Virus record (IMG/VR): IMGVR_UViG_2740892232_000011
Length of the DNA stretch: 24,393 nt
Direction: 5' to 3' (one strand)
Source: a virus
Lineage: Duplodnaviria; Heunggongvirae; Uroviricota; Caudoviricetes
A model generated the notes under the pieces. The model made no database searches. It worked only from the letters and a program-made list of their open reading frames with translations, and had not been told where the DNA came from. This document shows positions 2,528 through 23,285 of the stretch, piece by piece (the stretch's first letter is position 1; the number at the start of each line of letters is the position of its first letter). Position numbers and translations under genes: made by a program.

Positions 2528-2995
2528 TTATTTCAGGCACTGAGTACGGATATATTCCTGCGCCCCTTCCAGTTGCTTCTGCATCGTCATCAGCCGCTCT
2601 CTGAGGGTGAAATAATCCCGTGTAACGGTGTCTGCCAGTTGGGGGCCGGTTGCATTATCCACGCGGGCGGTGCCGGTGGCTTCACGCACGGGACCTGGAC
2701 AGGTGGCGTTGATACGCAGGCGCTTACGACCAGCGGCAACGTCAGCGCGAAGAGTTTCATTTTCAGCTTTCGCATCAGCTAACTCCTTCGTGTATTTTGC
2801 ATCGAGCGCAGCAACATCACGCTGACGCATCTGCATGTCAGTAATTGCCGCGTTCGCCAGCTTCAGTTCTCTGACATTTTTGTCGCGCTGGGCTTTGTAG
2901 GTAATGGCGTTATCACGGTAATGATTCAGCCCCAGACTAAGCGCACCACAGGCCACCAGCAGGGCAATGATGACCACGCACAGTACGCGGTTCAT
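2528..2995 (-). CDS. Rz inner-membrane spanin (i-spanin)
   Basis: 155 aa with N-terminal TM then [56 protein letters not shown]..., matching lambda Rz as I recall it. Contains the embedded Rz1 frame. Confidence 0.9.
2590..2775 (-). CDS. Rz1 outer-membrane lipoprotein spanin (o-spanin), embedded in Rz in the +1 frame
   Basis: 61 aa; signal peptide with lipobox-like VVSAC, proline-rich [30 protein letters not shown] resembling lambda Rz1. Entirely inside Rz, as is classical. Confidence 0.85.
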
Positions 2996-3210: not shown

Positions 3211-3293
3211 ATTCACTTACGTTTCGCCAGTTCGCAGGATTTCGTGTTATCCGCCCGCGTGGCCATGCCTTATTTTTCAGCAAAATATTCTGC

Positions 3294-3827
3294 TTATCTG
3301 TCGATTCCCCAGCACGCCAGCGCGCTCTCCTGGTCACGACGGGATACCTGACCATAACAGTTATTTGAGCGGACACGGCAGTCTCTGCCACCGTCCTTAA
3401 TCCACCAGCGAATCGCCTCACACGCTCCCCTGCGATCACCTGCATTAATTCGTTTATAAAACGTCGACGGGAAACACTTACCGGGACCAATGTTGTACGG
3501 ACAGAATGACGCGATCCCCGCTTTCTGGGGTTCACTCAATGGCACTCTGATGTTTTTCTCCACCCATGCCAGCGCCTTATCACGCTCAATGGCGTTAACC
3601 CGGTCGCATTTTTCCTTCGACAACTTCATGCCCGGAACGACAGGTTTGCCATCCACCAGGATGGCACCGCGGCAGATGGTCCAGATACCCGCGCCATCAC
3701 GGTATGCCGTGGTGTGGTTACCTTCCTTTTCATCCAGAAACTGGTCGAGAATGTCAGGCGCAGGCGCACCAGCGGCAATCAGCGCCAGAACGGCAGCCGA
3801 CAGGCCGTATCTGATTTTTGCGTTCAT
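3294..3827 (-). CDS. Endolysin, T4-lysozyme-type (GH24), probable SAR (signal-anchor-release) endolysin
   Basis: 177 aa. Hydrophobic Gly/Ala-rich N-terminus (YGLSAAVLALIAAGAPA) typical of SAR domains, then lysozyme-like core (TAYRD..GIWTICRG..). Paired with an S21-type pinholin upstream. Confidence 0.85.
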   Translation of the reverse strand: MNAKIRYGLSAAVLALIAAGAPAPDILDQFLDEKEGNHTTAYRDGAGIWTICRGAILVDGKPVVPGMKLSKEKCDRVNAIERDKALAWVEKNIRVPLSEPQKAGIASFCPYNIGPGKCFPSTFYKRINAGDRRGACEAIRWWIKDGGRDCRVRSNNCYGQVSRRDQESALACWGIDR

Positions 3828-3932
3828 GGATATTTATCAGGATTTATCGGTTTCTGAGCCCTAGATATGTTTATCAGTTCCAGCCTGTTGCCTCAGGCTG
3901 CTAACAGGTCAATACAATCATGAGGATTATTT

Positions 3933-4205
3933 ATGGACAATAACACCATTTCTCTACAGGAGTTGCTCGACAGCATTTCCAGGCTTCGGGAAGACGTGAA
4001 TACCCTTACCGTCGCCTTCTCATATCTGGCATTCTCAATTCCAAGGGAACAGATGCAATCAACGCTGGCATCAATCCAGTTTGAATCATGCAATCCCAAA
4101 TGGTCTCAGGAACAACAAGACTCTTTCAGGCGGCTTGCTGTATTACTGGATGAAAAATATGCTGGTAAAATTACCATTTCGGCGGACTCTTCAGAGAACC
4201 CGTAA
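3933..4205 (+). CDS. Hypothetical protein (90 aa) on the opposite strand inside the lysis cassette
   Basis: ATG with GAGGA RBS 6 nt upstream; non-repetitive, protein-like sequence (MDNNTISLQELLDSISRLREDVNTL...). Converges on the minus-strand YdfR-like gene with about 15 bp 3' overlap. No family recognised. Confidence 0.45.
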   Translation: MDNNTISLQELLDSISRLREDVNTLTVAFSYLAFSIPREQMQSTLASIQFESCNPKWSQEQQDSFRRLAVLLDEKYAGKITISADSSENP

Positions 4206-4727
4206 TTATTCCCGGTAGTTTTCCTCTGTAGGTTATCAACACATCCTGCGCCTCTAAAATTACGGGGCGCTTTTCCGGCGACTGCTCATCCCCTTCACAT
4301 AACCCGGCAGCAACATCCAGGAAGACCTGTCTGATGCTCCTTCTGGCTGCTGCCTCATAAAACTCCAGCGAGGCACCTTCAACACGGTCCAGCGAGATGT
4401 CCAGGTCAAAAATTTCACCGTCAAAGCGTTTTTTGTCCCGTAACGCTAAAGTTACCGTAACTTTATTCTCAAAATTGCGGNNNNNNNNNNTGACTGCTCA
4501 TCCCCTTCACATAACCCTGCAGCAACATCCAGGAAGACCTGTCTGATGCTCCTTCTGGCTGCTGCCTCATAAAACTCCAGCGCGGCACCTTCAACACGGT
4601 CCAGCGAGATGTCCAGGTCTAAAATTTCACCGTCAAAGCGTTTTTTGTCCCGTAACGCTAAAGTTACCGTAACTTTATTCTCAAAATTGCGGATCCCTTT
4701 CACAATCAGTTCATAGTTTTGAGTCAT
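4191..4727 (-). CDS. Small prophage protein between holin and endolysin (YdfR/DUF1327-like by position), interrupted by scaffold gap and duplicated sequence
   Basis: Starts 5 nt after the holin stop; reads MTQNYELIVKGIRNFENKVTVTLALRDKKRFDGEILDLDISLDRVEGAALEFYEAAARRSIRQVFLDVAAGLCEGDEQS up to the N run. The same frame in the left copy continues PEKRPVILEAQDVLITYRGKLPGIITVL to a stop at 4191-4193. True length about 107 aa once the duplicate is collapsed. Family assignment rests on recalled synteny in E. coli Qin (essQ-ydfR-rrrQ). Confidence 0.5.
4279..4698. repeat. Two near-identical ~200-bp copies flanking a 10-N gap (4481-4490): unmerged contig overlap or tandem duplication
   Basis: 4279-4480 and 4491-4698 align with three substitutions and one 1-nt indel (cccgttaacgc vs cccgtaacgc). 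N run marks a scaffold join. Confidence 0.9.
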
Positions 4728-4731
4728 TGAA

Positions 4732-4947
4732 TTACTCTCCCCGTGCAGCCTTACGACGGTCCTCTCTGATTTTGAAATACAGGTTAGTCAGATATGTCAG
4801 CAGCCCAAACAGCAGACTCCCCAGCACGCCTATTGCCGCCCACTGAGACGGGGAAACCCTGTCCAGCAACTGCAGGAACCAGTAGCCCGTTCCCACCGCT
4901 GACGTGGTGTATGACACACCTGTTGTGATTTTTTCCATCTGGTACAT
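4732..4947 (-). CDS. Class II pinholin (phage 21 S21-like) with dual-start motif
   Basis: [71 protein letters not shown]. Two in-frame ATGs 3 codons apart (4945-4947 and 4936-4938) give 71/68-aa products, matching the S21 antiholin/holin arrangement as I recall it. GGGAG RBS upstream. The track ORF extends further upstream to 5025. Confidence 0.85.
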
Positions 4948-5097
4948 ACCCCGTCTCCCGTTATCCGGAAGCTGACAACAATAAAAAAAGCCACCAGTTA
5001 AGTACTGATGGCTCTGATAACTCATGCAGGCATCTCAGACGACCCACTGACACTACCGGTGAGTTTAACGATACCTTCCATTTGGCTGGCTCACTTT

Positions 5098-6951
5098 TTA
5101 TGATGATGCCGGTGCATTTATCTCCAGCACCAGACTTTCTATCTCAACGCCATACGCTGCATTTTTGGTAATATCCGTCAGCGTCAGCGCATTCAGCCCC
5201 AGTGTCAGACTGTCTTTTATGACCTGGAATGCCGGGCCAGCCACTCCATTCAGTTTCGGAGTAACCGTGGCACTGCCGGCGGTGAACACCAGCTCCAGCG
5301 TCTGCCAGTCGTTACTGTAATTCCCGAACTCGCCCAACTTTGTGTTTCCTGCTTTCTTGTGATGCATCAGATTCAGTTTGCCGTCTGTGGTCTGGGTGAA
5401 GAACGACATCAGGAACGGGTTACCAGTCCCGGTCATCGCCACGACGTCAGGTAACGCTACATCGGTATACAGATAAATTCCCAGACCGAACTGGTTGTTG
5501 GTCAGTGCGCCTGACAGTCGAAACTTACAGCTCAGTCTGCCACCCCGTGTCAGCAGGGAGACTGCGTCATCCACCGGGCGCGTCAGGGACCAGGCTTTAT
5601 TGCTCTGCTTGGTGATCTTAAATACACCATCTGACAACTGAATTCCGCCATTCTTAATGCTCCAGCCCTGCGCAGCAGCGTCTCCGGCTGTCGGCAACAG
5701 GGAGATTGTGCGTATGGATGCATCTTCAGACGGCCCCGATGGCGTGTCGCCGCCGGGCGAGGGTTTGATTTCCGGTGCCTTACCACTAATGAAGGCTAAG
5801 GTGCGACCGGCTACGTTCAGAATAGCAGTTGCCATACGATCGGGAATAATGCCACGACGCGCCCATGAGCTGAAATGCGTCGGGCGATTTGATGATACCC
5901 AGTTTTTGTTCGTTCGGGATGCCGAACCGTAATAACCAGACCCGGCAATATCAGGATCTTCTGACGGGTTGTTTGTCGGTGTATTAACTCCGCTACCATC
6001 GGTCATAAAGGGAACAAAATAAATCTGCTGGGATTCTTTACCTTTATATGCACCATATACCACTTCATATTGCGTACCGTGTTCTTGTTTCCACGCGTAT
6101 GTCGTGTCGCCACAAATCCAGGGGACTGATGCCGGACTTCCACCGTGACACTGCGCCGCCAGCCCGGCAAGGTCAGCACGGAACTGCTGTACCATTGCAA
6201 GAAATGCTGCTGGCTGCTGGGCGTAACTGGCATTCGTCATATCGAATTCCCCCTGCATCCAGCATATCGCCAGCAAAACGTTTTTCGGGTTTTTCTGCAA
6301 TGCTGCCTTCGTGCGGAAAAGCAGATCCTGATATAACGGCTTACCCACTCCCCAGCGAGCCGAATCCTGACTGGCTCCCGTGGACTCGCTGAATGTCCCC
6401 TCCGTGCCCTGGGTGAATGCCGAACCACCACGACAGCATGGTACCAGCAGGATCCCCGCATTATTAGGGATATACGGAAGCAGTTTTTTGGCAATATGTA
6501 AGCCCTGTCCGACACAGCCGTACTGCCCTTTGCTCAGGTCAGCCCGGGGATGGTTAATCGTACTCATATCCTGAACATCATGCAGACAATGGTCAGCAGG
6601 AATGATGTCGTTAAATACGCATACTTCACCACCGGGAGTCACTGTGTTACGACGGGCCAGTTGCTTAATGCGCGGATGGGGCGCATCGTATGAATCCGGA
6701 AGCGGAAGCCCTTCACCGTAAGCCATGGCATTGGATTGCCCGGCCAGTACGATGACGTAGTACCACTCCGGCTCAGTTGCACCACTGACGACCACATCAC
6801 CTTCTGCTGCAATCGCCTGCATCAGGGTATAAGGGGTTATGGCCACCGGACTACCAAACGGCTGCCAGCCCTCCTTCAGTTTTTGTGTCAGTCGTTTCGC
6901 AAGGTCTGACGGCGATGCCGCCCTGACCACGTCATAGTGTTTAAATGCCAT
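5098..6951 (-). CDS. nanS: Prophage-type sialate O-acetylesterase (NanS-p-like), SGNH hydrolase with N-terminal DUF1737-like domain
   Basis: 617 aa; GQSN catalytic-serine block (VLAGQSNAMAYG) typical of SGNH esterases; ATG with GGGAGG RBS. Same position (between tRNA/toxin slot and holin) as the large esterase ORF of Stx phages. Assignment from memory of EHEC prophage annotation. Confidence 0.8.
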   Translation of the reverse strand: MAFKHYDVVRAASPSDLAKRLTQKLKEGWQPFGSPVAITPYTLMQAIAAEGDVVVSGATEPEWYYVIVLAGQSNAMAYGEGLPLPDSYDAPHPRIKQLARRNTVTPGGEVCVFNDIIPADHCLHDVQDMSTINHPRADLSKGQYGCVGQGLHIAKKLLPYIPNNAGILLVPCCRGGSAFTQGTEGTFSESTGASQDSARWGVGKPLYQDLLFRTKAALQKNPKNVLLAICWMQGEFDMTNASYAQQPAAFLAMVQQFRADLAGLAAQCHGGSPASVPWICGDTTYAWKQEHGTQYEVVYGAYKGKESQQIYFVPFMTDGSGVNTPTNNPSEDPDIAGSGYYGSASRTNKNWVSSNRPTHFSSWARRGIIPDRMATAILNVAGRTLAFISGKAPEIKPSPGGDTPSGPSEDASIRTISLLPTAGDAAAQGWSIKNGGIQLSDGVFKITKQSNKAWSLTRPVDDAVSLLTRGGRLSCKFRLSGALTNNQFGLGIYLYTDVALPDVVAMTGTGNPFLMSFFTQTTDGKLNLMHHKKAGNTKLGEFGNYSNDWQTLELVFTAGSATVTPKLNGVAGPAFQVIKDSLTLGLNALTLTDITKNAAYGVEIESLVLEINAPASS

Positions 6952-7144
6952 GAATCCTCCCGGGCGGGATAATGTTGTGAGTCAGATAAGGAGCAGGCTG
7001 AAGTCCGGAAGTTACAGGACAATGGCAGAAGGGAGACTACAGCCCGCAATTCGAAAAAGACCGCGCAGTTGCGCAGAGTGATTACTATGGGGTATTATTC
7101 GCCAGCTGAAATATTACTTCACGTTTTATTGTTTATTCCTTGCC

Positions 7145-7173
7145 GCCCGCGTCTCCCAGCGCGGGCTTTTTTT
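7145..7173 (+). terminator. Intrinsic terminator-like hairpin oriented for the plus strand
   Basis: GCCCGCG-tctccca-CGCGGGC followed by TTTTTTT. No plus-strand gene is annotated upstream, so the target transcript is unknown. Confidence 0.4.
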
Positions 7174-7179
7174 GTCCAT

Positions 7180-7885
7180 AAGAAAGCCCCTCCGGAGAGG
7201 GGCTAAAGCCGCGTATCTGTATCATCATGCACATGGTGCCGGGTGCCTCCCGGTGAGTTCAGCCCGGTGCCACTAAACCCGCGTCATTCTCGTTTTGATA
7301 ATCAGAGATTATACCGTCACCAGTCGCCCCTCCGCTCAGGGGGATTCACCATGCGAAATTTTTTTAACAAATGCCCAGTCTGACAGGCAACTGTCAACTT
7401 ACTGAATTGTGAGCAACATAGCATTTAACGGGGAACCTGTTTTCTGCAGTAAAAAGGCCCACCGGAGCGGATGGGCCTGGAAGGATAGCGGTCATGTGAT
7501 GCCGGTTTCCCGGTAACTCAGCACCGGTATCTGAGTCAACGTTTTCTCTACTGGGTCATTTCCGATACGCCCTGCCTGCTGACAGGCTTTCATCACATCT
7601 GAAAATATAGCACCCTGACTGATACTGTAGTACCTAAGGTTCCAGAAACTGTGATGTATCCGGCACAGAAAAGCCCCTCCGGAGAGGGGCTGGAGAGTGG
7701 CGCTATGTGCCATTGCATGGTGCCGGGTGCCTCCCGGTGAATTCAGTACCAGCACCTGAATCCGCGATTATCCCATATACCTACTCGCTGATTGCCCCTC
7801 CGCACAGGGGGATTCACCATGCCAGTTTCTTTTAACAAACTCCCCGCAAACCAGACAACAGTCAACCGCCTGAATTGTGAGACAT
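7180..7885. repeat. Two imperfect direct copies (~7180-7405 and ~7668-7885) of a ~220-bp modular noncoding unit between the tRNA cluster and nanS
   Basis: Shared blocks in the same order: AAAGCCCCTCCGGAGAGGGGCT (22/22), CATGGTGCCGGGTGCCTCCCGGTGA (25/25), GCCCCTCCGC..AGGGGGATTCACCATG, TTTTTAACAAA, CTGAATTGTGAG. Each copy ends (minus-strand sense) with a GC-rich hairpin plus T-rich tail. Confidence 0.75.
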
Positions 7886-7886
7886 T

Positions 7887-7910
7887 TAAAAAAAGCCCGC
7901 AAAAGCGAGC
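7887..7910 (-). terminator. Intrinsic terminator immediately after the tRNA cluster
   Basis: Minus strand: GGCTCGC-tttt-GCGGGC-TTTTTTT (6-bp stem with one G.U, T7 tail). Confidence 0.5.
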
Positions 7911-23036: not shown

Positions 23037-23285
23037 ATGGCAAGACTTATTCTGCTCACTGAGTGGGCAAAAGAGGAATTCAGTGAACCGGTCCCTACTC
23101 CGAGTACGTTAAGTAAATACGCTAAAGCCGGAATGATATTTCCTCTCCCCAAAAAAGTTGGAAAACGCTGGCGAGTGGATCCGCAAGCTCGCTTTGTCGG
23201 AATGGTAAACAAGCCGGAGGTGATCGCCACAGATCACCCTGCTTTGAAGAGGATACTGGAAGATGGCGCGCCCGCGAAAATATAA
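23037..23285 (+). CDS. xis: Excisionase-like DNA-binding protein (Xis)
   Basis: 82 aa directly upstream of and overlapping int by 23 nt, as in lambda xis/int. Basic, HTH-like. Confidence 0.7.
   Translation: MARLILLTEWAKEEFSEPVPTPSTLSKYAKAGMIFPLPKKVGKRWRVDPQARFVGMVNKPEVIATDHPALKRILEDGAPAKI

Follow-up and report, generated by a model that had tools for sequence, protein, structure and literature searches.

The stretch of DNA considered here (IMG/VR record IMGVR_UViG_2740892232_000011, analysed over its whole length of 24,393 nt and hereafter called the window) carries roughly 200 bp of the gene ydfR twice, once on either side of a short run of Ns, which raises the question of whether the repeat is a real duplication, the seam between two different prophages or a product of draft assembly. 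The sole N-run in the window comprises 10 N at positions 4481-4490. Around it, a direct repeat (4280-4480 and 4492-4692) aligns without gaps at a constant offset of 212, and a base-by-base comparison reveals three internal substitutions, at 4306 (G/T), 4371 (A/C) and 4408 (A/T) in the coordinates of the first copy. The outermost base differs as well, C at 4279 being replaced by T at 4491. Alleles of the Rac type, which are described below, also carry T at the position matching 4491; since this T is allele-specific, the blocks are best taken as 202 nt in length (4279-4480 and 4491-4692) with four substitutions (2.0%). Both blocks end flush at the N-run: copy 1 closes the left contig and carries C4279, G4306, A4371 and A4408 (ydfR allele A, this prophage's own allele), and copy 2 opens the right contig and carries T4491, T4518, C4583 and T4620, the Rac-type haplotype. 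The original prediction of an N-run bracketed by a duplicate of about 200 bp is thereby borne out; of the "three substitutions and one 1-nt indel" that it listed, the three internal substitutions were recovered, and the supposed indel gives way to the substitution at 4279/4491 in an alignment free of gaps. Each block also contains one copy of a 19-nt palindrome, TAAAGTTACCGTAACTTTA, within the ydfR coding sequence (4447-4465 and 4659-4677).

The affected gene, ydfR (DUF1327/YdfR family; 4171-4727, minus strand), is split as written by the false duplication; the true gene of 345 nt consists of 4693-4727 followed by 4171-4480, with its start at 4727. Removal of either block restores an intact open reading frame of 114 aa, and the frame is lost only under a literal tandem reading, since a period of 212 nt is not divisible by three. 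The frameshift in one allele that had been expected from the indel is thus mistaken. The two versions of YdfR differ by F36L and S49A only, the remaining two nucleotide changes being synonymous. The protein matches Pfam family PF07041 (DUF1327) over residues 1-111 (E = 1.7e-42; 144 bits against a cut-off of 25), and within a lambdoid lysis cassette the gene is placed between holin and endolysin. Directly upstream of it is a class II (P21 S-type) holin (4732-4947, minus strand; PF04971, E = 9e-33; also annotated in RefSeq); on its other side are a phage lysozyme, the endolysin (3294-3827, minus strand; PF00959), and an Rz-type lysis protein, the spanin (2528-2995, minus strand; PF03245), both likewise annotated in RefSeq. 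An antisense open reading frame of 90 aa (3933-4205, plus strand), which shares 35 nt with the 3' end of ydfR, corresponds to the RefSeq hypothetical protein WP_000369850.1, and a profile search found no Pfam family for it. The same gene order appears in the RefSeq annotations of related E. coli prophages, with the terminase further left. Its position between holin and endolysin, its length of 114 aa and its PF07041 domain are shared with the ydfR/DUF1327 genes of other lambdoid lysis cassettes (Qin, Rac-type and Stx-phage late regions), and no difference from these is left once the artefact has been removed.

Independent assemblies of the same element show what the locus looks like when it is sequenced without a gap. 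For this comparison, the window was collapsed by deleting one block together with the Ns and keeping copy 1, giving 24,181 nt, and a reference was obtained by joining two overlapping loci of contig JBPAZI010000005.1 (5.12 Mb; GCA_050897925.1). The collapsed window aligned with this reference end to end over its 24,181 nt at 99.983% identity, with three mismatches and one 1-nt gap, which lie solely at 274, 8255, 12306 and 18770 and thus not near the junction. The chromosome OZ040161.1 differed from the collapsed window by a single mismatch in 13,827 nt across the junction, and APEC O18 aligned gap-free over 8,480 nt with four mismatches, all outside 3268-8316; because the region 3268-8316 is without mismatch, the YdfR protein is that of the APEC O18 prophage. 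When the two sides were mapped separately onto APEC O18, the left query (3300-4480) matched at 100% and the right query (4492-5900) with three mismatches, and the places to which they mapped overlapped by exactly 201 nt. Copy 1 is identical to APEC O18, OZ040161.1 and GCA_050897925.1 at all four variant sites. Among the related loci, a 40-nt block probe occurred once in 121 of the 130 that were fetched and twice in none, the window alone having two copies, and ydfR was a single 114-aa gene in all ten loci that share the exact lysozyme protein, one of which is OZ040161.1. The pattern spanning both copies, for which the chance expectation is 0, had no match in IMG/VR, GTDB representative genomes or JGI metagenomes, and no GenBank phage record matched the window. 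The prophage of the relatives sits beside ompW, with the left-then-right order of the two contigs as in the real prophage. Given the single copy in relatives and the colinearity of the collapsed window with them, the duplication is therefore not biological, and these sequence comparisons indicate that ydfR would here be a single-copy gene in the lysis cassette of a lambdoid prophage beside ompW.

The remaining prophage shows several further features. The integrase gene (23263-24393, plus strand) terminates the window, which ends at the integrase stop; as ompW is the next gene in relatives, the right edge of the window corresponds to the junction between prophage and chromosome. A Kiwa defence system of two genes (13322-14961, minus strand) encodes KwaB (340-342 aa) and KwaA (204 aa), with Pfam matches PF16162 and PF28043 seen in loci that are 99.9-100% identical to that part of the window. 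Three phage-borne tRNA genes (7926-8175, minus strand) lie between a DNA methyltransferase and an esterase and comprise Arg-tct, Arg-tcg and a tRNA with a CAT anticodon, the last of which is called Met by ARAGORN and Ile in the RefSeq annotation of relatives. A 617-aa protein (5098-6951, minus strand) with DUF1737, SASA (sialate O-acetylesterase) and DUF6645 domains is encoded upstream of the holin, as in Stx-converting phages.

If the element has one ydfR, the bases that distinguish copy 2 must be accounted for. Copy 2 (haplotype T-T-C-T; 201 nt) is matched at 100% by at least 40 complete genomes, among them those of BL21(DE3), REL606, E. coli C and ATCC 8739, and the haplotype is also present in many wild isolates; in the genomes that carry it, it belongs to a Rac-type lysis cassette adjoining trkG. 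All four variant bases of copy 2 are those of the Rac-type haplotype, and copy 1 has the C-G-A-A of near-identical prophages; the four differences therefore represent a natural haplotype and not errors. The extent of the Rac-type sequence can be delimited closely. The right contig matches the Rac type exactly from 4491 to 4746 or 4755 and the A type exactly from 4621 onward, so that the signature found only in the Rac type is confined to 130 nt (4491-4620). Allele A and the Rac type are identical over 4621-4746 (126 nt), or to 4755 (135 nt) against the BL21-type allele, and the switch from Rac-type to A-type sequence in the right contig would, from the alignments, fall inside 4621-4746. A search of 5,426 complete genomes gave no exact match to the right contig's combination of a Rac-type start with an A-type continuation. 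Over the 400 nt left of 4279, the A-type and Rac-type cassettes share 83-91% identity; to the right of this position they share 97-100%, and this jump indicates that the right contig begins at the edge of a shared module and that the left contig ends 202 nt inside it.

Several copies per genome are common in E. coli: the 201-nt query was found at 4,833 places in 3,621 genomes, with up to five per genome. We infer that the second allele resides in another prophage of the same genome. A case of two related lambdoid prophages in one assembly was seen on contig CAXJFM010000023.1 (GCA_964039125.1), where they lie about 245 kb apart, encode identical lysozymes and have near-identical lysis cassettes, both with the ydfR haplotype C-G-C-A. 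Natural intermediates between the two alleles (C-G-C-T, C-G-C-A and T-G-C-T) also exist in NZ_CP148357.1, SCU-172 and a further locus (L011), which points to frequent short-tract recombination among lambdoid ydfR alleles.

Taken together, the second copy is very probably a false duplication of the class termed duplicated overlapping contigs, with one ydfR in the genome and a right contig whose start derives from a second, Rac-type allele. In the sequence of events that we propose, the real genome would hold one ydfR between holin and endolysin, in a lambdoid prophage integrated beside ompW. The 5' two-thirds of this gene and the holin would form a module that recurs at 97-100% identity in a second lysis cassette, of the Rac type, and reads from two such near-identical modules would confuse the assembler. 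The left contig, carrying the prophage's own allele, would stop 202 nt into the shared module, and the right contig would be seeded at the left edge of the module from reads of the second allele; on this account 4491-4620 would certainly stem from such reads, and the sequence up to 4746-4755 might do so as well. The right contig would then cross the identical stretch of 126-135 nt and run on in the sequence of its own prophage. Read pairs would set the correct order of the contigs, four mismatches in the 202-nt overlap would block merging, and the minimum spacer of 10 N would stand for a negative distance. A 10-N minimum is used by some assemblers when a gap is negative, and a search of the literature found no citable statement of this rule; the behaviour of the assembler in the present case is our inference. 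The spacer at 4481-4490 would then conceal a true distance that is negative, the two contigs overlapping by 202 nt. One observation counts against the explanation: the right contig starts exactly at 4491 and not further into the Rac-type left flank.

The class itself is known from the literature. Duplicated overlapping contigs are a form of false scaffold duplication described by Kelley & Salzberg (2010, PMC2864568), and Ko et al. (2022, PMC9516828) count a gap between duplicates on one scaffold among the hallmarks of such errors. The present locus has the corresponding geometry, with duplicated blocks at adjacent contig ends that are separated by the scaffold gap alone, and independent assemblies of this element, free of gaps, have the locus once. 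The flush aligned ends, the intervening gap and the allelic differences that prevent merging are all shared with the published cases (PMC2864568, PMC9516828). These papers deal with diploid vertebrates, in which the two versions are haplotypes, whereas in the present, haploid organism a paralogous prophage gene or a second strain is the most likely source of the second version.

A more specific assembly model was also considered and set aside. An unpopped de Bruijn bubble with its two arms placed one after the other is a Velvet-like behaviour, and with k = 73 the arithmetic fits exactly, the length of 202 being equal to (4408 - 4279) + 73, that is, 129 + 73; the block opens at the first variant site and closes 72 nt past the last. 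A strict bubble, however, requires that the second allele agree with allele A throughout the 72 nt left of 4279. Searches of IMG/VR, JGI metagenomes and RefSeq complete genomes (best 99.5% in RefSeq) found no exact copy of the combination of an A-type left flank with T4279 and T4306 (C4263 with T4279). All 28 loci with T4279 in an IMG/VR control scan carried T4263 and the Rac-type flank, as did both of the RefSeq Rac-type loci that were examined. With no such allele in these collections, the numerical fit at k = 73 is possibly a coincidence.

Among the alternatives to an artefact fed by a second prophage of the same genome, the one that survives best retains the artefact and changes only the source of the second allele, which would come from a second E. 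coli, either through mixed culture or through low-level contaminating DNA (e.g., from a B-lineage laboratory or expression strain) whose reads formed a short dead-end branch on the shared stretch. This is conceivable although rather unlikely. The exact occurrence of the copy-2 haplotype in BL21(DE3), REL606, E. coli C and ATCC 8739 would suit such a source, and a right contig that begins abruptly at 4491, without the Rac-type left flank that always accompanies T4279 (together with T4263) in public data, fits a short and poorly covered branch. The same haplotype is nevertheless found in many wild isolates, multiple ydfR copies per genome are common, and the window bears no other sign of mixture.

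It is distinctly improbable that the source strain, or a part of its population, carries a recombinant ydfR, in which a Rac-type gene-conversion tract of 130-270 nt lies in the prophage at the ompW site and the assembler wrote out both the converted and the unconverted version. The intermediate haplotypes C-G-C-A and C-G-C-T do occur with A-type flanks, which makes a naturally recombinant allele possible somewhere in the genome. If this reading were true, the allele would be one that is absent from the 5,426 complete genomes, IMG/VR and the JGI metagenomes.

The artefact of overlapping contigs should also be weighed against a chimeric join, in which the left contig (endolysin, spanin and terminase) and the right contig (holin through integrase) come from two prophages. 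Much of the original prediction that led to this idea has held: the placement of endolysin, spanin and terminase left of the gap agrees with the Pfam matches and RefSeq annotation; the view that unmerged ends of two contigs from the same gene meet at the gap is supported by blocks flush at the N-run and by the single-copy ydfR of relatives; and the two alleles of an often multi-copy lambdoid late-region gene are recognised as that of the ompW-site prophage (copy 1) and an exact Rac-type allele (copy 2). Two alleles do meet at the junction, and lambdoid late regions are multi-copy and mosaic. The further step, of assigning the whole left side and the whole right side of the gap to different prophages, is not supported and appears very improbable: both flanks lie contiguous and near-identical in one prophage in GCA_050897925.1, OZ040161.1 and APEC O18, the first of these an independent assembly with which the collapsed window is colinear throughout. 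In addition, all three complete genomes with the exact left flank also have the exact right flank, and the Rac-type signature is limited to 130 nt.

A real partial tandem duplication of ydfR, with a small unsequenced gap and later conversion of one copy by a Rac-type paralogue, takes the literal sequence, which does have two copies in tandem, at its word. We rejected it as extremely improbable: the gap falls exactly between the copies, both of which are flush to it, so that the junction itself is replaced by Ns; no tandem was seen in 121 related loci; the 212-nt period would destroy the reading frame; and each of the four differences would need to match an allele that already exists. Finally, sequencing errors at low-coverage contig ends, with no second allele, can be dismissed as next to impossible, for although contig ends are often error-prone, the four differences reproduce in position and base a natural haplotype with exact matches in 40 or more complete genomes, an outcome for which we estimate a random-error chance of roughly 1e-10.

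The duplicate is thus an ordinary draft-assembly artefact of a known kind and no real biological feature. Its only importance is one of data hygiene, because the sequence as written splits ydfR in two and suggests a duplication or a chimeric prophage. Deletion of 4481-4692 (or of 4279-4490) corrects the record, leaving ydfR whole, at 114 aa, in a prophage that is colinear with those already known. Among 77 IMG/VR loci with an A-type flank, eight whole draft contigs stop or start in ydfR or within about 250 nt of it (4189-4737 in single-copy coordinates), marking the gene as a point at which short-read assemblies of E. coli break repeatedly. More broadly, short near-identical modules are common to lambdoid prophages and, in short-read assemblies of E. 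coli, lead to recurrent contig breaks and to small paralogue-derived patches at contig ends.
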